64,000 bases of DNA, from the NCBI GenBank assembly GCA_938018055.1, contig CALIKL010000040.1, forward strand, positions 89,137 to 153,136, read 5' to 3'. This document shows positions 42,338-63,861 of this stretch, piece by piece. The notes beneath the pieces are model-generated. The model was not told where the DNA came from, searched no databases, and was given only the letters and a program-made list of their open reading frames with translations. This DNA comes from an uncultured bacterium. GTDB taxonomy: Bacteria > Bacteroidota > Rhodothermia > Rhodothermales > UBA10348. Numbering within the stretch: position 1 is the stretch's first letter; each line of letters opens with the position of its first letter. The translations under genes and the position numbers were made by a program.

Positions 42338-44203
42338 TCAGTGATCGGTTTCTGATGAACGGTTCTCTCCCGTATCGAAATATTCCCTGACCAGGCGCGC
42401 TGCGTATGGCCCCACTTCCTCGGAAAGCAAGGTCTCGGACGCTTCTCTGACTCGTTTCAGGGATCCGAATGCTCTCAGCAGCTTGCGTGCCGTTGCCGGA
42501 CCGATCCCCTCGATTTCTTCCAGCTCCGTATGCAGTGTGTTCTTCTTGCGTTGTTTTCGCTGGAACGTGACAGCAAATCGGTGGGCTTCATTACGCGCAC
42601 GCTGCAGAAGCTGCAGCGATGCGCTGTCTTTCGAGATGAAGACCGACTCGGTATCCCCGGGGAAAAACACTTCCTCCAATCGCTTGGCCAGGCCGACGAG
42701 AGGGAATTTCCCGTAGGCCTCCACATCGACCAAGGCCTGAACAGAGCTCGAAAGCTGACCTTTCCCACCGTCAATGACAACCAGGTCGGGCCAAGGCCCG
42801 TTTTCCTCTACCACTTTCCCGTAGCGACGACCGACGACTTCTTTCATTGATTGGAAATCGTCGGAACGCCCATTACCGACGGTTCGCATCTTGTACGTGC
42901 GGTACTCGCTTTTACGCGGCTGTCCATCAATAAATACCACACAGGAGGCAACGACATCCGTGCCACTCAGATGGGAAATGTCGAAGCATTCGATCCGACG
43001 GGGAAGACGCGGAAGGGAAAGATCTTTCTGAAGCTTTTCAACGGCGTGAGGAACCCGGCCTTCCGTCTGTTTTTGTTTGTGGATGAGATGCTCGGATAGC
43101 ATCAATTCCGCATTTTTTTCTACGATCCGAACGAGTCCAGCCTTGTCTCCTCGCTGTGGCACATGCAGTGTCACTTTGTGCCCACTGTTTTCACGAAGGA
43201 GATCTTCGATCAGTTCGGGATCTGCACAGGCAATCGACAACAGGAGTTCTCGGGGAAAGAATGTGGACTCGGTGTAATAGCGCTCCAGGACGGCTTGCAT
43301 CAACTCGTCCTCGGGCGTCTCTTCGATGCGGCTCAAGTAAATGTGACGGCGCCCCACAATCTTTCCGTCGCGCATCTGGAATACCGCTCCGCAAGCCGCA
43401 TTTGACTCCCTGTCCAGAGACAGGGCAAACAGATCCCGATCCGCCAGATCTCCGCTGACGACCTTCTGGCGCTCGGCGTACTTCTCGAGGGCTGCAATCT
43501 GATCCCTGAGCTTGGCCGCCTCCTCGAAGTCCATGGCTTCGGCGACCCGTTGCATCTCATCTTTGAGCAGGGAGATGAGACCGCCCGTCTTGCCGTTGAG
43601 TAGCTGTTCGACCTGCTTGATGGTTTTATCGTAGTCCTCCCTCGATTGCAGACCCACGCACGGCGCGTCACATTTCTTGATGTGGTACTGCAAGCATACT
43701 TCGTATTTCCCGGCTGCAATGGGCTCTGCAGCAAGATTCAACGAGCACGTGCGAAGACGGAAAATGGATCGGATGGTATCGAGCATCAGATTCATGCTGC
43801 GTACGTCCGTGTACGGTCCGAAGTACTTTGACCCGTCCTTTCTTGGACGCCGCGTCGAGAAAACCCGAGGGAAGGGCTCGTTCTTCACGCAAATGAAGGG
43901 GTAGGTCTTGTCATCGCGCAACAGAATGTTGTAGCGAGGTTTGAGACTCTTGATCAGATTGTTTTCAAGCAGCAAGGCCTCCACTTCCGTATCTGTGACA
44001 ATCACTTCAACGTCGCGCACTTTGGAAACCATGATCCGCAGACGACCATCCAGATTTCGACCGGCATGAAAGTAGGAGCTGACCCTCGCCTTCAGGTTCT
44101 TTGCTTTGCCGACATACAACACTTTGCCAGCCTCGTCCTTGTGTTGGTAGACACCGGGGCGGGTAGGAATGCGGGAAAGTCTTTCTGCTAATTCCGGGCG
44201 CAT
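42338..44203 (-). CDS. uvrC: Excinuclease ABC subunit C
   Basis: ORF 42338-44383. I moved the start to M61 (44203). The GIY-YIG domain reads PGVYQHKDEAGKVLYVGKAKNLKARVSSY. A UvrBC-interaction region and a C-terminal HhH (IEGIGPATARKLLRAFGS) follow. Confidence 0.9.
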   Translation of the reverse strand: MRPELAERLSRIPTRPGVYQHKDEAGKVLYVGKAKNLKARVSSYFHAGRNLDGRLRIMVSKVRDVEVIVTDTEVEALLLENNLIKSLKPRYNILLRDDKTYPFICVKNEPFPRVFSTRRPRKDGSKYFGPYTDVRSMNLMLDTIRSIFRLRTCSLNLAAEPIAAGKYEVCLQYHIKKCDAPCVGLQSREDYDKTIKQVEQLLNGKTGGLISLLKDEMQRVAEAMDFEEAAKLRDQIAALEKYAERQKVVSGDLADRDLFALSLDRESNAACGAVFQMRDGKIVGRRHIYLSRIEETPEDELMQAVLERYYTESTFFPRELLLSIACADPELIEDLLRENSGHKVTLHVPQRGDKAGLVRIVEKNAELMLSEHLIHKQKQTEGRVPHAVEKLQKDLSLPRLPRRIECFDISHLSGTDVVASCVVFIDGQPRKSEYRTYKMRTVGNGRSDDFQSMKEVVGRRYGKVVEENGPWPDLVVIDGGKGQLSSSVQALVDVEAYGKFPLVGLAKRLEEVFFPGDTESVFISKDSASLQLLQRARNEAHRFAVTFQRKQRKKNTLHTELEEIEGIGPATARKLLRAFGSLKRVREASETLLSEEVGPYAARLVREYFDTGENRSSETDH

Positions 44204-44333
44204 GAAGTGGTGGCCATCGACGATCTGCAAGGTCTGGATTGACGACAATGTCCGAAAGAGGTTCGTCGTCGCTCCATGAACCGATCCTGATTGTTTAGGT
44301 TCAGGCAAGCATGTCCGCGTCTCTACCCATCTG

Positions 44334-44993
44334 ATGCCCACCACGATCATGTCTGATTCCGAAGCTGACCATACCTCTCCCATTCTGGAGGAGCTTCACC
44401 GACTTTACCCCGACGCTGATTGCGCTCTGAAACATCGCAATGCACACGAGTTGCTGTTTGCGACCATCATGTCGGCGCAGACCACGGATGTCAATGTGAA
44501 CCGGGTCACGGCGTCCCTGTTCGAGAAATATCGGACGGTAAAGGACTTTGCAGACGCCGACCTGGAGATCTTCCAGGAGGAGATCCGGTCTACGGGATTC
44601 TTTCGGAACAAGGCAAAGAATGTAGTGGCAGCCGCAAACATGATCGAGGAAGAGCATGACGGACACGTCCCCGATACAATGAATGACCTTGTGGCCCTGC
44701 CCGGAGTGGCACGCAAGACGGCCAATGTGGTGCTGGGTACGTGGTTCGGGAAAGCGACGGGCTTCGTGGTAGACACCCACGTCAAGCGTCTTGCTTTCCG
44801 ACTCGGACTGACCGAGCAGACTGATCCCGTGAAGGTCGAAAAAGATCTGATGGAGGTTATTCCGCAGGACGAGTGGATCTTCTCCGGTCATGCCATCATC
44901 CTGCATGGTCGCGCGGTTTGCGATGCAAAGAAACCACTTTGTGATGCATGCACCCTACGTCCGCATTGCCCACAAAACGGAGTGGGTTCCTGA
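44334..44993 (+). CDS. nth: Endonuclease III
   Basis: 219 aa with the HhH-GPD block LVALPGVARKTANVVLG and the Fe-S cluster motif CDAKKPLCDACTLRPHC. It is divergent from uvrC. Confidence 0.9.
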   Translation: MPTTIMSDSEADHTSPILEELHRLYPDADCALKHRNAHELLFATIMSAQTTDVNVNRVTASLFEKYRTVKDFADADLEIFQEEIRSTGFFRNKAKNVVAAANMIEEEHDGHVPDTMNDLVALPGVARKTANVVLGTWFGKATGFVVDTHVKRLAFRLGLTEQTDPVKVEKDLMEVIPQDEWIFSGHAIILHGRAVCDAKKPLCDACTLRPHCPQNGVGS

Positions 44994-48417: not shown

Positions 48418-48600
48418 ATGCGTCGAACGATGTCCCGGCTTATCGCACTCCACCTTGCTCCTCTCTCTTCCCTTCGCAGGAAGCAGGGGGTTGAGGCTGT
48501 TGCAGACCTCCCGATCCGTTCGACCGAAGTGGTAGACCTACTAGTGGCGGGCCTCGTGATCCTGCTGTCCCTTCTCGTCAGCGTGCTAATTGTCACCTGA
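48418..48600 (+). CDS. Candidate branched-chain-amino-acid-rich leader peptide or small tail-anchored membrane ORF upstream of ilvD
   Basis: 60-codon ORF ending 80 nt before the ilvD ATG on the same strand. Its last 23 residues, VVDLLVAGLVILLSLLVSVLIVT, are 17/23 Ile/Leu/Val. A GTG at 48529 would give a 23-aa version. No clear U-tract terminator follows. Confidence 0.3.
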   Translation: MRRTMSRLIALHLAPLSSLRRKQGVEAVADLPIRSTEVVDLLVAGLVILLSLLVSVLIVT

Positions 48601-48680: not shown

Positions 48681-50399
48681 ATGTCGCGACGCAGCCATAC
48701 GATTACCAAAGGGTACCAGCGAGCTCCCCACCGGAGCTTGCTGCGGGCAACGGGTGTGGTCCGCAGTGACGAGGATTTCGATCGCCCCTTCATCGGTATC
48801 TGCAATTCGTACATCGATCTGATTCCCGGCCACGTGCACCTTCAGGAATTCGGGGCGCTGGTCAAGGAGGCCGTGCGGGAGGCTGGGGGGCTACCGTTTG
48901 AATTCAATACCATCGGCGTAGACGATGGGATTGCCATGGGGCATCTGGGCATGCGCTATTCGCTGCCAAGCCGCGAGATCATTGCGGATGCCGTGGAGAC
49001 CGTCGTTCAGGCGCATTGTCTGGACGCCATCATCTGTCTGCCGAATTGCGACAAGATTGTACCGGGCATGCTCATGGGCGCCCTGCGATGCAATATCCCG
49101 GTCATATTCGTTTCCGGTGGCCCGATGAAGGCGGGACGGCTTCCGGACGGGCGCAAGGTGGATCTTGTTTCGGTTTTTGAAGGGGTAGGGCAGTACTCGA
49201 ACGGGGAAATCAATGATGTCGAGCTGGATGCCCTGGAGCATCTCGCATGTCCGACGTGCGGCTCCTGTGCCGGTATGTTCACGGCAAACTCTATGAATTG
49301 CATCATGGAAGTGCTGGGTCTGGCTCTGCCGGGCAATGGGACCATCCTGGCTATTGACCCAAAGCGGGGCGATCTGGCGCGATCCGCTGCACGTCGCATC
49401 GTGGAGATGGTCGACGAGGGGCTCAAACCGCGCGATATCGTGACGGAAGAGGCGTTTGACGATGCCTTCGCCCTGGATATGGCCATGGGAGGATCCACCA
49501 ATACGATCCTGCATCTTCTGGCCGCAGCGCATGAAGCGGGGGTGGATTATGATCTGGAGCGCATCAATGCCATGTCTGACCGCGTGCCTTATTTGTGCAA
49601 GGTCGCCCCTGCGACTCCCGACGTACATATGGAAGATGTAGACGCGGCGGGCGGCATCCAGGCCGTCCTCGCCGAGCTGCATCAGGCCGGTCTGTTGAAC
49701 AGCCATCGGCCAACGGTCACGGGTCATCCGTTGGGCCACGGCCTGGATGCCGCCCATACCAGTCACCCCGAGATCATTCGGCCTGCCTCGAATCCTTTCC
49801 GTGCCACGGGAGGACTCCGCGTGCTGTTCGGCAATCTGGCTCCGGAGGGCTGCGTCGTCAAGACTGGAGCTGTTGCTGAGGACATGCATCTTTTCGAAGG
49901 CACTGTCCGCATTTTTGAAAGTCAGGATGAGGCGGTCGAGGGCATTCTCAGCGGTAGTATCGAGCCCGGTACCGTGGTCATCATTCGCTACGAGGGGCCC
50001 AAAGGCGGACCCGGCATGCCCGAGATGCTGCAGCCCACGTCGGCGCTGGCCGGCATGCGACTGGACCGCAGCGTAGCCATGATAACCGATGGCCGTTTTT
50101 CCGGTGGTACCCGTGGATTGAGCATTGGTCACTGTTCTCCCGAGGCGGCCGCAGGCGGCGCGATCGCGCTGGTTGAGGAGGGAGATCGCATCACCATCGA
50201 TTTGCATGAGGCTTCCGTGCATTGGCACGTTGACGAGGTGGAAGAAGCGTCACGTCGCTCGGCCCTGCCGCCATTCCAGGCTCGCATTCAGAGCGGGTAT
50301 CTGGCCCGGTACAGCCACCTGGTGACCAGTGCCTCTACAGGCGCCATTCTACGGGTACCCGATTGGGAGCCTGCACTTCATCCCTCACATTCCGCCTGA
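48681..50399 (+). CDS. ilvD: Dihydroxy-acid dehydratase
   Basis: 572 aa. The [26 protein letters not shown]-terminus, the CDKIVPGM block and the Fe-S cysteines match the IlvD/Edd family. Confidence 0.95.
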
Positions 50400-56760: not shown

Positions 56761-58059
56761 ATGGGACAGACCATTACCCAGAAGATTCTTGCTCAGCATG
56801 CCGGGCGCGACCGAGTCGCGCCCGGGGACAACATCTGGGTAGACGTGGACACCTTGATGACACACGATGTCTGTGGTCCACCAACGATCGGCATCTTCCA
56901 GCGTGAGTTCGGGGAAGACGCCAATGTGTGGGATCCCGACAAACTGGTCATTCTGCCGGACCATTACATTTTTACCGAGGATCCGCACGCGCGGCGCAAC
57001 ATCGACATACTGCGGGATTTCGCGGCCAAGCACCAACTGAAGCATTACTTCGATGTCGGGACGGCTCGATATAAAGGGGTTTGTCACGTGGCGCTGGCAG
57101 AGGAAGGGTTCAATCGCCCAGGCACCGTGCTCTTCGGGACGGACAGTCACTCGTGCACCTCAGGTGCATTCGGCATGTTTTCCACGGGGGTGGGTAACAC
57201 GGATGCCGCATTGATCATGGGAACCGGGAAGATCTGGGTGAAGGTACCGGAGACGATGCGTTTTGTGTTTGAAGGCACGCTACCCCCCTGGTTGATGGCC
57301 AAAGATTTGATTCTCAGCGTCATTGGTGACATCGGGTTCGAAGGCGGAACGTACCGTGCGCTGGAGTTCGATGGCGAGGCGGTATTCGATCTGTCGATGG
57401 AGGAGCGGATGACGCTCACGAACATGGCCATCGAGGCCGGCGGGAAAAATGGCATCATAGCGGCAGATCAGAAGACGGTGGATTATGTAGAGGCGCGGAC
57501 CGATATGCCGTACGAGCTGGTTACTTCGGATGCGGATGCCCGCTACATCTTCGAGAAGGTGTACGATGTCTCCACCATGGAACCAGTTGTCGCCAAACCG
57601 CATCGCCCCGATAACAAAGCATCGGTCTCGGAAGTCGCTGGAATCAAGCTGGATCGCGCTTACATAGGCAGCTGTACGGGGGGTAAGTTTGAGGATTTCC
57701 TGGCAGCGGCTCGCATTCTGGAAGGTAACCGGGTACAAGTGGATACATTTGTTGTGCCAGCAAGCACCGAGGTCTCCAAGCAACTGCGTGAGCAGACCCT
57801 GGGTGGTAAGACGCTCTGGCAAGTCTTTGTCGATGCCGGATGCAAGATGGGTCACGCATCATGCGGTGCCTGCTTGGGAGGGCCGGTCGATACCTTTGGT
57901 CGTACACACGGCACGGAAGTCGTCATCTCCACAACGAACCGGAATTTCCCAGGCAGGATGGGCTCGAAGCAATCTGCAGTGTATCTGGCATCACCCCTCA
58001 CGGTAGCCGCCTCGGCATTACACGGCGAAATCACGGATCCGCGCACCGTTCTGGTATAG
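56761..58059 (+). CDS. leuC: 3-isopropylmalate dehydratase large subunit (short, archaeal/type-2 form)
   Basis: ORF 56746-58059, start at 56761 (MGQTITQKILAQHAG). It has the aconitase-family blocks, including the Fe-S cysteines IGSCTGG and ASCGACLGG. Confidence 0.9.
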   Translation: MGQTITQKILAQHAGRDRVAPGDNIWVDVDTLMTHDVCGPPTIGIFQREFGEDANVWDPDKLVILPDHYIFTEDPHARRNIDILRDFAAKHQLKHYFDVGTARYKGVCHVALAEEGFNRPGTVLFGTDSHSCTSGAFGMFSTGVGNTDAALIMGTGKIWVKVPETMRFVFEGTLPPWLMAKDLILSVIGDIGFEGGTYRALEFDGEAVFDLSMEERMTLTNMAIEAGGKNGIIAADQKTVDYVEARTDMPYELVTSDADARYIFEKVYDVSTMEPVVAKPHRPDNKASVSEVAGIKLDRAYIGSCTGGKFEDFLAAARILEGNRVQVDTFVVPASTEVSKQLREQTLGGKTLWQVFVDAGCKMGHASCGACLGGPVDTFGRTHGTEVVISTTNRNFPGRMGSKQSAVYLASPLTVAASALHGEITDPRTVLV

Positions 58060-58125
58060 AACCGGTTTCGCATGAGAAGGGCGCCAAGCCCGACATTCCA
58101 ACCCAATGAAGTCATATTCGACAGG

Positions 58126-58686
58126 ATGAAAGATCGCATTGAAGGAAAGGCCTACGTGCTCGGTGATTCGATTGACACCGATCAGATCATACCGGCTGCG
58201 CACCTCGTCTACAGTATGACGGAGCCGGAGGAACGGCGGATGTATGGTCGTTACGCCTGCAGTGGCGTGCCCAACGACCAAGCCGGCTTGCCTGAAGGCG
58301 GTATGCCACTTACGGATCCCGAAGCTTGGACCAGTGATTTCAGGATCGTGATTGCGGGCTCCAATTTCGGATGTGGCTCTTCGCGAGAGCATGCCCCGTT
58401 TGCCCTGCAAGAGGCTGGAATAGAGGCCGTGGTAGCTACATCGTATGCTCGCATTTTCTACCGCAACGCGGTGGACGGTGGCTTTTTGGTGCCTTTCGAG
58501 TCACGCGAACGACTTATCGATCAGATCCGGACGGGTGACGACGTGGTTATTGACGTTCCAGCTGGAACGTTGACTCATGTCTCCTCGGGCGAGGTTTTTC
58601 TGCTGAATCCACTGGGTGATGTAGCAGACATCCTGCGCGCAGGAAATGTCTTTGAGTATGCTCGCCAGGCAGGCTTCATCAGCTGA
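58126..58686 (+). CDS. leuD: 3-isopropylmalate dehydratase small subunit
   Basis: ORF 58072-58686, start at 58126 (MKDRIEGKAYVLGDSIDTDQIIPA). It has the GSNFGCGSSREHA swivel-domain motif. Confidence 0.85.
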   Translation: MKDRIEGKAYVLGDSIDTDQIIPAAHLVYSMTEPEERRMYGRYACSGVPNDQAGLPEGGMPLTDPEAWTSDFRIVIAGSNFGCGSSREHAPFALQEAGIEAVVATSYARIFYRNAVDGGFLVPFESRERLIDQIRTGDDVVIDVPAGTLTHVSSGEVFLLNPLGDVADILRAGNVFEYARQAGFIS

Positions 58687-58703
58687 TCACACTACTCTCT
58701 GTA

Positions 58704-59069
58704 GTGCCTACCTCCATGACGAATCCCAAGCCACTGGTTCTGACGCGTGCCGACGAGATGCTGATGGTGTGCATTCTGGTCTTGGATGGGGATGCCTTCA
58801 GTACGACCATTCGTCATGAGATGGCCTCCCGGGCACGCAAGAAGATTACCGTGGGCAGTCTCTGGGTTGCACTGGATCAACTGGCCGAACGAGGACTGAT
58901 TGAAAAAGAGAGTCGCAAGAATCCCGACCGGAAAGGGGGACGACCGCGCATCTACTATTCCCTCACGCCTGTCGGACGTAAATCGCTGAAAAAGACACGA
59001 GAGATGGATGCCAGACTATGGCGCCGGGTACCCGATCCGATGGAAAACGCGAAAAAAGACACCAATTGA
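58704..59069 (+). CDS. PadR family transcriptional regulator
   Basis: 121 aa. The winged-helix pattern MLMVCILVLDGDAFSTTIRHEM...GSLWVALDQLAERGLIE...RIYYSLTPVGRKSL is typical of PadR. It starts 17 nt after leuD. Confidence 0.75.
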   Translation: MPTSMTNPKPLVLTRADEMLMVCILVLDGDAFSTTIRHEMASRARKKITVGSLWVALDQLAERGLIEKESRKNPDRKGGRPRIYYSLTPVGRKSLKKTREMDARLWRRVPDPMENAKKDTN

Positions 59070-59079
59070 CCCTGTCGGG

Positions 59080-59108
59080 TTGACCCGATTCGAGAAGCGC
59101 CGTATGTT
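59080..59108 (+). promoter_or_regulatory. Sigma70-like promoter candidate for the arg leader
   Basis: TTGACC (59080-59085), a 17-nt spacer, then TATGTT (59103-59108). The predicted start would fall within a few nt of the leader ATG at 59117. I do not know whether this phylum uses such hexamers. Confidence 0.25.
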
Positions 59109-59116
59109 CGCCGCCC

Positions 59117-59215
59117 ATGACTACTACGATCACATCGCACACACTGCGTCGCCGCTTCCGACGAGTCCGATCGGGACATCGATCCGGGTACGGTATACGT
59201 ACGTCTGCCATGTAA
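59117..59215 (+). CDS. Candidate arginine leader peptide (32 codons, 8 Arg)
   Basis: Hand translation: ATG ACT ACT ACG ATC ACA TCG CAC ACA CTG CGT CGC CGC TTC CGA CGA GTC CGA TCG GGA CAT CGA TCC GGG TAC GGT ATA CGT ACG TCT GCC ATG TAA, giving MTTTITSHTLRRRFRRVRSGHRSGYGIRTSAM. Six Arg codons fall within 8 consecutive codons (59147-59170). It lies upstream of a terminator and of argG. Confidence 0.45.
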   Translation: MTTTITSHTLRRRFRRVRSGHRSGYGIRTSAM

Positions 59216-59246
59216 CGTCGTCTTATTTAACGACTGATTGAATGCC

Positions 59247-59279
59247 AGCGTCGGCCCGTACGGGATCGACGCTTTTTTT
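59247..59279 (+). terminator. Strong rho-independent terminator 78 nt upstream of argG (attenuator terminator candidate)
   Basis: AGCGTCG (59247-59253) pairs with CGACGCT (59267-59273), and inner CCC/GGG pairs add about 10 bp in total. TTTTTT(T) follows at 59273-59279. The opposite strand has no T-run. Confidence 0.75.
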
Positions 59280-59356
59280 ATGTCCCACGATTTTACCAAT
59301 TGAAGGAATCCCGGCTGACGGTTAGCGGAGTCGGACCTACCAACCAACATCTAGAC

Positions 59357-60559
59357 ATGTCCATCATCGTCGCCTTCAGTGGCGGACTCGATACCTCCTT
59401 CTGCGTGCCCTTTTTGCGCGAGCAACACGGTTGTGATATCCATACCGTGACCGTTGATACAGGCGGCATTCGTGCCCAAGAGGCTCGCGAAATTGCTGCT
59501 CGTGCCAAGGAGCTTGGGGCAGCCAGTCACCACATGATCGATGCGCGAGCCGATCTGTTTGACAGATCCCTGCAGTACCTCATCAAGGGAAACGTGCTTC
59601 GAGGTGATCTGTATCCCCTGTGCGTGGGTCCCGACCGGGTAGTACAGGCCGCTTCACTCGTGGACAAAGCCCGGGAGATGGGTATATCCACAGTGGCGCA
59701 TGGCTCGACGGGTGCCGGGAATGATCAGATCCGCTTCGACGTTGCCTTGTCGGTTCTCGGCGGAGATCTCACCATCCTGACGCCCATCCGGGACGGGAAT
59801 TTGAGCCGGGAGTTCACGTCGGGTTGGCTGAAAGAGCGAGGCTACCCGGTAGACGCGTCAACCACGACCTATTCGGTCAATACGGGTTTGTGGGGGACTA
59901 CCGTTGGGGGAAAGGAAACGCTGGGTACCGCGCTACCGCTTCCGGATGATGCATGGCCAACGCCAGCTCCCTCTGAGGCACCCGATGAGGGCGTTTCCAT
60001 TGAAATCGGATTCGATCGGGGCGTGCCCGTATCACTCGACGGCACCATGCATCCTCCTGTTGCCGTGATTGAGACGCTGAATGCGCTTGGTGAAAACCAC
60101 GGGGTAGGCCGGGCCATCCATGTCGGGGATACCATTCTGGGGATCAAGGGACGGGTAGGATTTCAAGCACCGGCAGCTGCGATTCTGATTCCTGCTCACC
60201 GCGAGCTGGAGAAGATCGTCTTGTCGCGATGGCAACAGTATCACAAAGCTCAACTGGGTGACTTCTATGGCATGCTGCTCCACGAGGCCCAGTATTTCGA
60301 TCCGATCATGCGCGACATAGAATCCTTTTTTGACAGTTCACAGGAAACCGTGACGGGGACGGTCCGTGTGACCCTTTGCAAGGGGCTGGTTTCAGTGACC
60401 GGTTGTGAATCACCATTCTCCCTGTTTGACACGGGCGTGGCCACGTATGGCGAACAGAATGATCTGTGGGACGGTCGGGATGCTCGGGGCTTTGCCCGGA
60501 TTCTCGGAGTCCAGTCTCTGCTTACCCATCGGGTCCGCACATCCAGTGAGGACGCATGA
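59357..60559 (+). CDS. argG: Argininosuccinate synthase
   Basis: ORF 59300-60559. I moved the start to M20 (59357): MSIIVAFSGGLDTSFCVPFL (PP-loop). It also has AHGSTGAGNDQIRF. Confidence 0.95.
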   Translation: MSIIVAFSGGLDTSFCVPFLREQHGCDIHTVTVDTGGIRAQEAREIAARAKELGAASHHMIDARADLFDRSLQYLIKGNVLRGDLYPLCVGPDRVVQAASLVDKAREMGISTVAHGSTGAGNDQIRFDVALSVLGGDLTILTPIRDGNLSREFTSGWLKERGYPVDASTTTYSVNTGLWGTTVGGKETLGTALPLPDDAWPTPAPSEAPDEGVSIEIGFDRGVPVSLDGTMHPPVAVIETLNALGENHGVGRAIHVGDTILGIKGRVGFQAPAAAILIPAHRELEKIVLSRWQQYHKAQLGDFYGMLLHEAQYFDPIMRDIESFFDSSQETVTGTVRVTLCKGLVSVTGCESPFSLFDTGVATYGEQNDLWDGRDARGFARILGVQSLLTHRVRTSSEDA

Positions 60560-61617
60560 AAACCATTGAGGTAACCTACGTCTGTTCGACGGCCGCCAAG
60601 ACCGGTCTTGTTCGAAATGTAACCCTGAGTGACTACGTCGTAGCCCAGGAAGGTTACTGTGTCGTAGTCGAAGCGTTGGAAGCCAAGCCCATCTACAATC
60701 AGATTGAATGCGCGGACGGAGAATTCCGCACGATTGCGAAGGGTGACATTTTCGTGGGCGTACTCGGAGAGCGTAAAGCGCTCAAGGGCTACTCTGGCGT
60801 CGTGCCGCGCGTAGCCCTGCCTGGCGACACGCTCAACGTTCTGAACATGGGTGGCATCATCGGGACCTGTGTCAGTGACCATCCGGACCTCGGTCCGGCA
60901 TTGCGGGTCAAGGTGCTTGGTGCGGCCATGGTGGAGCAGGACGACATGCAGGTTCATGCGCGCCTGCAAGACCATGCGTTGCATCCGGTCGATTCACTGA
61001 AATCATCTGTGCCGCTCGTTTTCATTTCTGGTTCGGCCATGAACACCGGCAAGACGTTCGCCGCCTGCGAAGTAGTGCAACGCCTGACGCGCAGTGGATA
61101 TCGGGTTGCTGCAGCCAAAGCGACCGGCGCCTCGCTCATGCGTGATGTGCAATTGATCCGTCGTCACGGCGCTGTCGAGATAGCCACCTTCACGGACACC
61201 GGTGTGGTATGCTCGACCAACAAGGCAATGGCCCCACAGGTGAAAGGATTGATTCAGCACCTCAACGAAATTGCAGATCCGGACGTGATCGTGATTGAGC
61301 TTGGAGATGGGATCATTGGATATTACGGTGTCGATGAGCTTTTGCAAGACAAGGAGTTGCAGAAATTTGCACAAGCACACATTGTCGCTGCAGTTGATCT
61401 TGCAGGGGTTTGGGCGGTGCAACAGCTGTTCAAAGACCGCTATCACGCGGACATTACCGTCGTTACGGGTCCAGTTACCGATAATGGTGTCGGGAAGCAG
61501 TACATCGAGCAGGTGATGGGAATTCCGGCCATCAATGCTCGCGAGGACCCAAAAGATCTCGGAGACAAAGTGGCTTCCAAGCTTCCAGCGCCAAAATTGC
61601 GGGAGGCTCAGGTATGA
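60556..61617 (+). CDS. Uncharacterised two-domain protein with a dethiobiotin-synthase/CobQ/DUF1611-like P-loop C-terminal domain, embedded in the arg operon
   Basis: 353 aa. ATGA overlaps occur at both ends (60556-60559 with argG, 61614-61617 with argC). The C-terminal half, VFISGSAMNTGKTFAACEVVQRLTRSGYRVAAAKATG...VIVIELGDGIIG, parallels the BioD pattern FVTGTDTEVGKT...GYR.A..K....G. I cannot name a family for the N-terminal ~150 aa. The confidence is for a real CDS; the function is unknown. Confidence 0.8.
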   Translation: MKTIEVTYVCSTAAKTGLVRNVTLSDYVVAQEGYCVVVEALEAKPIYNQIECADGEFRTIAKGDIFVGVLGERKALKGYSGVVPRVALPGDTLNVLNMGGIIGTCVSDHPDLGPALRVKVLGAAMVEQDDMQVHARLQDHALHPVDSLKSSVPLVFISGSAMNTGKTFAACEVVQRLTRSGYRVAAAKATGASLMRDVQLIRRHGAVEIATFTDTGVVCSTNKAMAPQVKGLIQHLNEIADPDVIVIELGDGIIGYYGVDELLQDKELQKFAQAHIVAAVDLAGVWAVQQLFKDRYHADITVVTGPVTDNGVGKQYIEQVMGIPAINAREDPKDLGDKVASKLPAPKLREAQV

Positions 61618-62615
61618 TCAGCGTAGCCGTATTACATGCTGCGGGATATGTCGGTCGATCCCTGATGGAGGTGATCCTGGCTCATCCTGATCTGGATCTG
61701 GTGACTGCTACCAGCCGATCATTTACAGGGCAGCCTATTTCGGATGCCCATCCCACGCTGGCTGGCCGAACGAATCTGAAATTCGTTTCCTCCCTGGAGG
61801 AAGGTGCTTGGCCTGACCTGGTGTTTGTGGCCGCGGGTCACGGACAGGGGGCCACCGCCGTTGGCAACCTGCGAGATGCCGGATTCGACGGTCTGGTTGT
61901 AGATATGAGTGCGGACTTCCGATTGCCTGACGCTCAAACCTACGTACAGCGCTACGGCACGAAGCATCCGCGTCCGGACTTGCTGGCAGGTGCCTGGTAT
62001 GGCATGCCAGAAATAACCGGGCCGCCGCCGGCCGGTACAACGCTCATTGCAAATCCTGGCTGTTTTGCTACGGCCATTTCGTTGGCCTTATACCCTTTTT
62101 CCGGGGACGATGCACCAACGATAGATGTGTTTTCGGTCACAGCCATGACGGGTGCTTCCGGGTCGGGAGCTCTGCCCAAGCCCACCACACACTTCCCGGA
62201 CCGGGAGGGCAATATGCGGGCATACAAGGTTTTTTCTCATCAACACGAAGCTGAGATCGACCGCATGGCACCGGGGGTATCCTATCGGTTTGTCCCGGTA
62301 TCGGGCCCGTGGACCGCTGGTATTTGGGGAACGGCCCAGGCGACGTTACCAGCCGGTGTGGATGAGGCAGCCATCACGCGGCTGTTCGAGTCGTGTTATG
62401 CGGAACACGCGTTGATCCGGCTTTGGCCTGGGAAGCTACCGGAGCTGCGCTGGAGCGTTGGATCTCCCTTTACAGATCTGGGCTGGGTCATTCAGCAGGA
62501 TCGCCTTGTAGTGGGATTCGGTATCGACAACCTGATGAAAGGGGCCGCAACCCAGGCCGTGCAAAATGCAAACCTGGCTCTTGGCTGGGAAAACACCCAC
62601 GGACTCATTCCTTGA
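61614..62615 (+). CDS. argC: N-acetyl-gamma-glutamyl-phosphate reductase
   Basis: 333 aa with an N-terminal Rossmann motif (AAGYVGRSLMEVIL) and the catalytic Cys block IANPGCFATAISLALYP. Confidence 0.9.
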   Translation: MISVAVLHAAGYVGRSLMEVILAHPDLDLVTATSRSFTGQPISDAHPTLAGRTNLKFVSSLEEGAWPDLVFVAAGHGQGATAVGNLRDAGFDGLVVDMSADFRLPDAQTYVQRYGTKHPRPDLLAGAWYGMPEITGPPPAGTTLIANPGCFATAISLALYPFSGDDAPTIDVFSVTAMTGASGSGALPKPTTHFPDREGNMRAYKVFSHQHEAEIDRMAPGVSYRFVPVSGPWTAGIWGTAQATLPAGVDEAAITRLFESCYAEHALIRLWPGKLPELRWSVGSPFTDLGWVIQQDRLVVGFGIDNLMKGAATQAVQNANLALGWENTHGLIP

Positions 62616-62631
62616 ATTGGTAGGGTCATTC

Positions 62632-63861
62632 ATGACTCTCTTTTCTGATCATTACACGAGCATGATGCAGCACGAAACCAAGTCCGCCACCGAATGGATG
62701 GCTTTCGAAGACCAGACTCAACTGGGGACGTACAACAAATGGCCCATTCCGCTGGTAAAGGCGGCTGGAGCCATGGTCGAAGATGTGGAAGGGAATCAGT
62801 ACCTCGATCTGTATGGCGGTCATTGTGTGGCCTTTTTGGGTCACAACCATCCCGAGGTGGTCAAGGCCATCAAGGCACAGGCAGATGACCTACTTTTTTA
62901 TTCCAATGCCGTCTACGCTCCCGTGCGCGCACGCGCTTCAGCACGACTTGCTCGTCTCGCTCCGGAAGGCATGAATACCGTGTTCTTTGTCAACTCAGGT
63001 GCCGAGGCCAACGAGGTAGCCATGAAAATTGCCCGTAAGGCGACCGGGCGCGCCCATGTCGTTGGTGTGGAAGGCGATTTCCACGGTCGAACAATGGGCA
63101 GCCTGTCTACGACGTGGGCAAAGAAATACCGGGACGGATACGAAAAAGCCTTTGGGCCGGTATCATTCGCCCCATTCGGTGATGCCGATGCTGCTGTTCA
63201 AGTTATTCGAGATGCCTCACCGGCTGCCGTCATTGTCGAGCCCATTCAGTCGATGGGAGGTATGCGTACTGCGGATCGTTCATACTTCGAGGCGCTGCGA
63301 TTGGCCTGCGATGAGACCGGTGCCATGTTGATCTTCGACGAGGTTCAGACTGGTGTCGGAAGGACGGGATCATTCAGCTATGCGCAGACTATCGGCGTGA
63401 TTCCTCATATGATCACCATGGCAAAAAGCCTAGGTGGTGGGGTTCCGGTTTCAGCGCTAATCCTGAACGATGAAGTGGCTGCGACGGTAGGCCCGGGAGA
63501 ACAGGGAACGACGTTTGGCGGAGGCATGCTGGCCATGGCAGCCGTTGATGCCGCGCTGCGGGTGGTCGAGGAAGAGAAGCTGTCCGAGCGCGCCTTGCTC
63601 GTTTGGGATGCACTCGCTGAAGGGTGCAATGAGCGGGGTTTGCGATATCAGGGTGCTGGCTGTCTCATGGGAATAGACTTCGGTCAGCCCGTCGCTCCTA
63701 TAGTAGCGGGTTTGAGGGGGCATCACATCCTTACAGGTGGGTCGGCCAATCCGAATATCATGCGACTCATGCCTCCTGCGGTCGTGACGCGTGAACAGGT
63801 CGATCAATTCTTTACAGCGCTTGACGCCGTCCTGCAGCAACTCGAAGAGGTGGATGCATGA
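62632..63861 (+). CDS. argD: Acetylornithine/succinylornithine aminotransferase
   Basis: ORF 62566-63861. I moved the start to M23 (62632). It has the class III aminotransferase blocks YLDLYGGHCV, FDEVQTGVGRTGSF and the PLP lysine in ITMAKSLGGG. Confidence 0.9.
   Translation: MTLFSDHYTSMMQHETKSATEWMAFEDQTQLGTYNKWPIPLVKAAGAMVEDVEGNQYLDLYGGHCVAFLGHNHPEVVKAIKAQADDLLFYSNAVYAPVRARASARLARLAPEGMNTVFFVNSGAEANEVAMKIARKATGRAHVVGVEGDFHGRTMGSLSTTWAKKYRDGYEKAFGPVSFAPFGDADAAVQVIRDASPAAVIVEPIQSMGGMRTADRSYFEALRLACDETGAMLIFDEVQTGVGRTGSFSYAQTIGVIPHMITMAKSLGGGVPVSALILNDEVAATVGPGEQGTTFGGGMLAMAAVDAALRVVEEEKLSERALLVWDALAEGCNERGLRYQGAGCLMGIDFGQPVAPIVAGLRGHHILTGGSANPNIMRLMPPAVVTREQVDQFFTALDAVLQQLEEVDA

Follow-up and report, generated by a model that had tools for sequence, protein, structure and literature searches.

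Can a ribosome translating a short leader peptide control the synthesis of arginine, as it does that of several other amino acids? The question is raised by the 287-nucleotide (nt) spacer that separates a PadR-family gene (58704-59069) from the ATG of argG (59357) in a stretch of DNA from an uncultured bacterium of the order Rhodothermales (contig CALIKL010000040.1). The whole stretch of 64,000 nt is hereafter called the window, and coordinates without a locus number refer to it. In textbooks, arginine synthesis is regulated by the ArgR repressor, which binds DNA at ARG boxes in promoters. Leader-peptide attenuation has been described for Trp, His, Leu, Thr, Ile/Val, and Phe, and in scattered cases for Cys and Lys. 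An earlier note on this DNA, made from the sequence, proposed that the spacer carries an arginine attenuator, namely, an Arg-codon-rich leader open reading frame (ORF) followed by mutually exclusive antiterminator and terminator helices. In this work, we analyzed the spacer (59070-59356) and its homologs, and we consider it probable that they hold a ribosome-mediated leader-peptide attenuator that couples argG-X-argC-argD (X is an ORF of 353 amino acids) to the supply of charged tRNA-Arg. The earlier model is supported by conservation, by co-variation of helices, and by the geometry of the stop codon, and it is refined in the details of its antiterminator and of its segment 1:2 helix. The features of the leader, all on the forward strand, are as follows (MFE, minimum free energy).

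59080-59108 (+): sigma-70-type promoter; -35 box TTGACC at 59080-59085, 17-nt spacer, -10 box TATGTT at 59103-59108
59117-59215 (+): leader ORF of 32 codons plus TAA (59213-59215); its ATG follows the -10 hexamer by 8 nt
59147-59170 (+): putative regulatory Arg-codon cluster, CGT CGC CGC TTC CGA CGA GTC CGA; core CGACGANTCCGA at 59159-59170
59162-59187 (+): predicted segment 1:2 local hairpin (anti-antiterminator); 59162-59168 with 59174-59181 in the MFE fold, 59167-59173 with 59180-59187 as the alternative
59179-59207 (+): segment 2, predicted 5' strand of the antiterminator; conserved parts 59188-59193 (GUACGG) and 59198-59207, window-specific extension 59179-59185
59246-59269 (+): predicted partner strand of the antiterminator; 59246-59253 with 59198-59207, 59256-59261 with 59188-59193, 59263-59269 with 59179-59185
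59248-59279 (+): intrinsic terminator (attenuator); stem 59248-59257 with 59262-59272, loop GUAC, T7 run at 59273-59279

Anatomy and conservation of the argG leader

Recounting confirmed the length of the padR-argG spacer, and retranslation of 59117-59215 returned the 32-codon product reported earlier, MTTTITSHTLRRRFRRVRSGHRSGYGIRTSAM. All eight Arg codons of this ORF are CGN (CGT, CGC, CGC, CGA, CGA, CGA, CGA, and CGT). A codon count agreed with the earlier note that four of them are CGA and that six fall within the eight codons of 59147-59170. With Arg at 6.1% of codons in the long ORFs of the window, the probability of at least six Arg in eight codons is 1.3e-6; the core motif without mismatch has a single occurrence in the window. 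Judged from the window sequence alone, the Arg-rich ORF goes only moderately beyond chance. The question is settled in favor of more than chance by the conservation in relatives and the phasing of CG dinucleotides that are described below.

Refolding placed the strong intrinsic terminator of the earlier note, with its stem of about 10 bp and its T-run, at 59248-59279. The hairpin (59248-59272) has 10 pairs, one bulged A, and an energy of -15.7 kcal/mol, and it is present in the MFE fold with a pair probability of 0.99. A simple consensus terminator scan missed it, presumably because of the bulged A. The promoter at 59080-59108 was the sole promoter-like site found on either strand in a scan of 58000-60000, and the same scan returned no promoter-like site in the 77 nt from the terminator (end of the T7 run at 59279) to argG. 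Since the gap between the T-run and argG is only 22-23 nt in the relatives L002 and L024 and the window has no promoter-like site 3' of the hairpin, transcription of argG must traverse the terminator. In 15 of 19 tabulated leaders, 7-8 nt separate the -10 box from the start codon that follows it, and no Shine-Dalgarno sequence is present ahead of the leader ATG in the window. Because of this spacing, the leader ORF is probably translated as a leaderless mRNA.

The comparison is based on argG loci from two sources: ArgG scans of genome and metagenome contigs (L001-L022) and look-ups of ArgG homologs with 62-81% identity (L023-L034). Loci L014 and L015 are the source organism itself. For counting, we used the 23 distinct Rhodothermales-type loci with upstream DNA, in which ArgG is 62-100% identical. 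The same layout was found in 22 of these 23: a TTGnnn-17/18-TAnnnT promoter, a start codon, an ORF of 26-39 codons, a stop codon, a GC hairpin with T5-T9, and argG 22-81 nt further on. The promoter columns TTGA and CGTAT..T are kept in the alignment of 13 relatives, and a similar -35/-10 pair is present in 18 of the 19 tabulated leaders. The conservation on which the earlier note had made its model depend was borne out, with the Arg run, the frame, the ORF length, and the terminator all kept in relatives and following argG, not padR. The upstream neighbor differs by locus (padR, a folD-like gene, a mechanosensitive channel, a hydrolase, a lactonase-like gene, or a divergent sensor kinase), and since it varies in this way, the element belongs to argG rather than to padR. 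Among the carriers are a genome with an ArgG that clusters at >=90% identity with the ArgG of Rhodothermaceae bacterium RA (Roseithermus) and contigs encoding ArgG that their sources name as Rhodothermus bifroesti. The element is absent in two Flavobacteriales-type loci (ArgG 45-46% identity) and, as far as sampled, appears confined to Rhodothermales.

Two leaders show particular variations. In L017, an insertion of ~37 nt (~1230-1268) between the -10 box and the leader ATG produces a leadered version of the ORF; the insertion resembles two direct repeats of ~19 nt each (CCCCCTTCGGGGAAAAAGACA and CCCTTGGGGGAAAAGACA). In the Rhodothermus bifroesti-type locus L031, the leader ORF of 37 amino acids (1294-1407; MLLQSMIVMLPVRPIRPVRRPRRPRGGGTGVSCLATA) is called as a gene in the public annotation. 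Arg and Pro codons alternate in this ORF, and this arrangement may add slow elongation of its own.

Several patterns concern the level at which the Arg cluster is conserved. In the 13 closest relatives, the core CGACGANTCCGA is invariant at the nucleotide level, synonymous third positions included. In the distant relatives, the core is gone and other Arg clusters stand instead (e.g., RRRRR, RRLRR, RPIRPVRRPRRPR, and RARFRRR); the in-frame clusters of distant members also include SRRRRRA, ERRRTRRVR, IRRVRRR, LRRLRRVRFR, SRRLRRL, VRPIRPVRRPRRPR, and NRARFRRRIDRINRR. Every one of the 21 leaders examined has 4-9 Arg codons, which vary synonymously among CGT, CGC, CGA, and CGG between leaders. Start codon and Arg motif are 36, 42, or 45 nt apart, in each case a multiple of 3. 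Counted by codon phase over the 21 leader ORFs, CG dinucleotides number 138 in the CGN phase, as opposed to 57 and 52 in the remaining two (binomial p = 3e-13, for sequences that are related). Outside the Arg cluster, the peptides are conserved in neither sequence nor length. Because the motif is lost while in-frame Arg is kept, the distances change in steps of 3, the codons vary synonymously, and CG is phased, selection appears to act on codons and not on an RNA motif. The phasing also answers the caveat of the earlier note that CG-rich palindromes would yield CGN codons by chance.

The choice among Arg codons is itself uneven. By our own tally, CGA accounts for ~49% of the Arg codons of the leaders vs. 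17% in the long ORFs of the window, and in the 13 closest sequences a tandem CGA CGA hardly varies. This bias may reflect slow decoding through I:A wobble or a constraint from RNA pairing.

Predicted switching helices and the position of the ribosome

Segment 2 is contained in the 3' part of the leader ORF and ends 6 nt ahead of the stop codon. The earlier note had paired 59179-59193 with 59256-59269 over 7+6 bp, and this helix is real in the sense that it becomes part of the MFE fold once a ribosome footprint masks 59147-59175. Its GUACGG:CCGUAC core proved to be conserved, and its extension into the terminator 3' arm (59179-59185 with 59263-59269) is not general. In the window, the antiterminator core consists of GUACGG (59188-59193) with CCGUAC (59256-59261), plus 59198-59207 with 59246-59253, and this conserved helix and the one proposed earlier coexist as one composite structure. 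From the aligned leaders, the conserved antiterminator is thus predicted to be 59188-59207 paired with the terminator 5' arm and loop (59246-59261).

The nascent-transcript fold took in just the RNA that lies 3' of a ribosome stalled on the Arg cluster and ended before the terminator 3' arm. In all of the first 13 sequences, the terminator 5' arm was largely paired with the 3' part of the leader ORF in this fold, most positions with probabilities of 0.9-1.0. In a MAFFT alignment of 17 leaders, the antiterminator has 79% of its alignment cells paired vs. 27-38% in slid controls, and three pairs change on both sides. Family-wide, the terminator has 90% of cells paired and five compensatory pairs (slid controls, 28-47%). 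The energy gained by the antiterminator exceeds that of dinucleotide shuffles in 20 of 21 leaders (z from -0.85 in the window to -6.7), with a summed z of -9.9 over the first 13 sequences. When leaders were combined with terminators, the cognate combinations reached -10.3 kcal/mol vs. -8.5 kcal/mol for swapped ones, and only 6 of 20000 permutations were as good. The clearest example is the Rhodothermus bifroesti-type locus, where the terminator arm GACAGGGCGCCGGUUCC, unlike those of the other loci, is matched by GGAACCGGCG..CCUGUC within the ORF, a complementary segment of 17 bp with a gain of -24.3 kcal/mol (z = -6.7). In these comparisons, the predicted antiterminator that overlaps the terminator is conserved and co-varies with it.

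The segment 1:2 helix is less uniform. The pairing of 59167-59173 with 59180-59187 in the earlier note is possible and has homologs in the MFE folds of L001, L013, and L017, but it is not the MFE of the window. Each sequence folds its Arg-codon region onto segment 2, in registers that differ between clades, and only a CCG:CGG core is common family-wide. RNAalifold on the MAFFT alignment recovered the terminator and this 3-bp core only. A single consensus 1:2 helix for the family, tried as a candidate, was unsupported (55% paired, with clade-specific registers).

From this anatomy, we infer a start of transcription, translation of the ORF, stalling, and a response to arginine in vivo, which would be linked in the following way. 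The promoter at 59080-59108 would fire, and the transcript would begin at the leader ATG at 59117, or no more than one or two nucleotides from it, and be translated as a leaderless mRNA. Under a shortage of Arg-tRNA, the ribosome would stall in the CGN cluster (59147-59170), cover segment 1, and free 59188-59207. The freed strand would capture the terminator 5' arm and loop (59246-59261) as the polymerase makes them, before the 3' arm is made; this antiterminator would block the terminator, and the polymerase would read into argG. When Arg-tRNA is plentiful, the ribosome would reach the TAA at 59213 and cover 59198-59226, the terminator would form, and transcription would stop at the T7 run. 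In the case of no translation, a long leader hairpin would hold segment 2, and termination would be expected as well.

The placement of the stop codon fits the second of these states. Stop codons lie 3-14 alignment columns past segment 2, and because they are placed just beyond it, a terminating ribosome would hide a large part of the antiterminator strand. For the window, the footprint of a ribosome whose A site holds the stop codon (59198-59226) includes half of that strand. The MFE values of the window with each structure forced (kcal/mol) are as follows.

No ribosome: terminator -55.6, antiterminator -49.7
A site at CGA 59162: terminator -35.6, antiterminator -36.4
A site at the stop codon: terminator -42.8, antiterminator -35.2

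The terminator is thus favored by 5.9 kcal/mol without a ribosome and by 7.6 kcal/mol with a ribosome at the stop codon, and the antiterminator by 0.8 kcal/mol with the A site at 59162. Full-length equilibrium folding did not show a clean switch (10 of 13 relatives retained the terminator, and the forced-state energies were mixed), and for this reason we adopted the nascent-transcript fold and a 3'-only model. The latter keeps just the RNA 3' of the ribosome and reports the antiterminator energy minus the terminator energy. For the window, it gave +7.7 kcal/mol without a ribosome, -2.5 kcal/mol with the ribosome halted on the Arg codons, and +8.0 kcal/mol with one at the stop codon. The means over 21 leaders are 7.6 (free), 2.7-4.0 (stalled), and 8.5 kcal/mol (at stop), and the shift has the expected direction in 16 of the 21. 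The comparison of masked and unmasked folds that the earlier note had put forward gave the same picture for the window, which switches to the antiterminator under a ribosome at the Arg codons; most relatives do not at equilibrium. In these models, ribosome position selects the fold in the window. Because the full-length RNA at equilibrium keeps the terminator in most relatives, the switch must be kinetic, i.e., co-transcriptional. The E. coli trp leader is similar in this respect, as its 3:4 helix is the most stable on its own.

Competing explanations and known systems

A number of results weigh against reading this element as an attenuator, and part of them concern folding. The region as a whole folds with unexceptional stability (z = -0.56), and the antiterminator gain of the window itself is unremarkable (z = -0.85 against shuffles and rank 7 of 18 against swapped arms). 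The consensus 1:2 helix does no better than a control slid by -1. Only 9 of 21 leaders come within 2 kcal/mol in the 3'-only model, and only when stalled; under the stalled-ribosome mask, the full-length equilibrium fold still has the terminator dominant in 10 of 13 relatives, so that the attenuator model, as computed here, depends on the order of folding. Other results concern the ORF and its distribution. L029 is without the element, and L030 has only dispersed Arg codons. The sequences are related, and the p-values therefore overstate independence. Leader translation and the transcription start are deduced from spacing. Furthermore, the two strands of the window contain 80 small ORFs with at least four Arg in seven codons. 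A strong terminator follows such an ORF at two loci, the leader and one antisense ORF inside a gene. The latter (42897-43112, forward strand; ...HSIRRGRRGRERSF), which is followed by a terminator-like hairpin and a T-run, lies antisense inside the 681-amino-acid ORF at 42338-44383 and was dismissed as probably due to chance.

Some of these results would suit a simpler explanation, which the earlier note had raised as a caveat: the hairpin may be a plain terminator of the ilv-leu-padR transcript, with the Arg-rich ORF a by-product of CG-rich sequence and argG expressed from elsewhere. The padR gene ends at 59069 with no terminator between it and the hairpin, Arg-rich small ORFs are common in this GC-rich DNA, and the regional fold is ordinary. 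However, the element accompanies argG even where other genes lie upstream, a conserved promoter is located between the upstream gene and the hairpin, no promoter-like site follows the hairpin in a gap to argG that can be as short as 22 nt, and the frame and Arg cluster are conserved with a CG phase bias. As the sole role of the hairpin, this explanation is therefore extremely unlikely. The caveat survives in part, as the hairpin may also end transcripts entering from padR and serve as the terminator of the upstream operon too.

An attenuator could also work with a sensor other than the ribosome, if an RNA-binding protein or a small-molecule riboswitch recognized CGACGANUCCGA and the hairpin region and the ORF were left untranslated. 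The 12-nt core would fit such a recognition site, since it is invariant in the 13 closest relatives down to synonymous third positions and sits within a hairpin, and the ATG has no Shine-Dalgarno sequence before it. On the other hand, distant relatives drop the motif and keep the in-frame Arg cluster, the fixed distance from the -10 box to the start, and the stop codon beside segment 2; insertions and deletions 5' of the cluster come in multiples of 3; and no conserved aptamer-like structured core was found beyond the switching helices. Rfam searches returned no relevant match in 58500-59800 at E-values up to 10 and none in the whole window at the gathering score. We consider a sensor of this kind unlikely.

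The Arg-rich peptide itself might be the effector, either as a nascent arrest peptide responding to free arginine (in the manner of the fungal arginine attenuator peptide, TnaC, or SpeFL) or as a small basic protein. Poly-basic stretches and, in Rhodothermus, Arg-Pro-rich ones such as RPIRPVRRPRRPR can slow elongation by themselves, and the ORF of 37 amino acids in L031 was annotated by a gene caller. Two points make this explanation very unlikely: the peptides are unconserved outside the Arg cluster, unlike arrest peptides, and, from the geometry and energies above, a ribosome that stalled when arginine is abundant would increase arginine production, the opposite of what a biosynthetic operon requires. 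A further possibility is compatible with attenuation, namely, that the terminated leader of ~160 nt has a second function in trans as a small RNA, like rnTrpL in Sinorhizobium. Arginine sufficiency would release a stable and highly structured RNA, and small RNAs derived from attenuators have a precedent (PMC6614838). The leader is poorly conserved outside the switching helices, and we judge this additional role improbable.

Ribosome-mediated attenuation therefore remains our preferred reading, and its closest models are the enterobacterial leaders trpL, hisL, leuL, thrL, ilvL, and pheL. Like these, the argG leader has a short ORF with codons for the end product, mutually exclusive antiterminator and terminator helices, and a U-tract, located before the first biosynthetic gene, and the location of its stop codon is such that a ribosome terminating there would block the antiterminator strand. 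It differs from them in being for arginine, in having an ORF without a 5' untranslated region or Shine-Dalgarno sequence, in its poorly defined 1:2 helix, and in matching no Rfam leader family. The fungal arginine attenuator peptide, encoded by the upstream ORF of arg-2/CPA1, senses free arginine in the ribosome tunnel and blocks scanning. It resembles the argG leader in that an upstream ORF controls an arginine-biosynthesis gene by arginine; in contrast to the argG leader, it is translational, eukaryotic, has a conserved peptide, and is independent of Arg codons.

Control by ArgR and ARG boxes would share with the model proposed here the negative feedback of arginine on arg genes. Unlike promoters under such control, the argG promoter has no ARG-box-like site and no inverted repeat: no match to TGAATWWWWATTCA with up to three mismatches was found in 59000-59360, although this consensus comes from E. 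coli/Bacillus and may not suit this phylum, and no inverted repeats or palindromes were found in the promoter region (59030-59130).

Among bacterial arginine sensors, the closest precedent is orf34 of Salmonella speF, an upstream ORF in which consecutive Arg codons sense arginine through the progress of the ribosome (PMC6386406). That ORF controls ornithine decarboxylase, a catabolic/polyamine function, and has two Arg codons as compared with 4-9 in the argG leaders. Its output involves Rho-dependent termination, decay by RNase G, and access to the ribosome-binding site, whereas the argG leader would act through an intrinsic terminator/antiterminator switch. Leaderless regulatory ORFs also have counterparts. 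In Deinococcus deserti, 14 leaderless leader peptides were predicted, including those of cysS and trpEGD (PMC4007540), and polycysteine leaderless short ORFs are reported in mycobacteria (bioRxiv 10.1101/834739). Both share with the argG leader a regulatory small ORF at the 5' end of the transcript, before amino-acid biosynthesis or tRNA-synthetase genes. They differ in phylum and in the amino acids named, although an Arg member could be among the 14 of D. deserti. The literature searched yielded no description of a leader-peptide attenuator for arginine biosynthesis, and an earlier prediction is possible in Lopatovskaya et al. (2010) or in the D. deserti supplement.

Neighboring genes and implications

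Family searches agreed with the earlier note on the flanking genes, which are a padR-like gene, argG, the ORF of 353 amino acids, argC, and argD. Those downstream of the leader, all on the forward strand, are as follows.

59357-60559 (+): argG, argininosuccinate synthase, the first regulated gene in the proposed model (TIGR00032, 4.4e-87, above cut-off)
60556-63861 (+): the part of the downstream operon that lies in the window; ORF of 353 amino acids at 60556-61617, argC at 61614-62615, argD at 62566-63861

The genes argG-X-argC-argD overlap or abut, which is consistent with a single transcription unit. The ORF of 353 amino acids between argG and argC (60556-61617, forward strand) matched no family above threshold and had only faint matches of the P-loop type (MobB, 0.0017; DUF1611, 0.017; CbiA, 0.024). 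Homologous ORFs of 362-364 amino acids, also without a Pfam match, occupy the equivalent position in L024, L025, L027, and L031, and such a homolog is absent from L023, L028, L029, L030, L033, and L034. This ORF might encode an enzyme of the arginine pathway that has not yet been recognized.

On the other side, a PadR-family gene lies directly 5' of the argG leader on the same strand both in the window (58704-59069, forward strand) and in L027 (1970-2206). In L029, padR (2107-2415) abuts argG, and the leader is missing there. In several further relatives, padR also appears to be the 5' neighbor, as the ends of the upstream ORFs look homologous.

Elsewhere in the window, an ORF of 60 codons (48418-48600, forward strand) is located just 5' of ilvD (48681-50399), with which the ilv-leu cluster begins. 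This ORF ends with ...EVVDLLVAGLVILLSLLVSVLIVT*, has Leu, Val, or Ile at 18 of its last 23 residues, and has no Pfam match. No T-run terminator was seen between this ORF and ilvD. The ORF could encode a leader peptide for branched-chain amino acids or a small membrane protein.

What would set the argG leader apart is its arginine specificity, its apparently leaderless start, and its CGA codon bias; the logic of the attenuator is already known. A more far-reaching proposal, which we put forward only tentatively, is that arginine synthesis in Rhodothermales is governed primarily by the charging of tRNA-Arg through a leaderless leader ORF rather than by ArgR, and that this is the first leader-peptide attenuator for arginine. 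As part of that proposal, the CGA bias would tune the sensor to tRNA-Arg(ICG), given its slow I:A wobble decoding, so that the operon tracks this isoacceptor. The element is directly testable, since close relatives of the cultured Roseithermus sacchariphilus RA and Rhodothermus bifroesti carry it.

If the attenuator is confirmed, an order in or next to Bacteroidota would rely on sigma-70-like promoters, and on leaderless initiation, to express a regulatory small ORF. The succession of promoter, ATG, CGN cluster, and terminator would then provide an annotation signature for arg operons in Rhodothermales. A conserved arginine attenuator would also fill a gap, in that arginine has been the standard repressor-controlled counter-example to the textbook cases of transcription-translation coupling.

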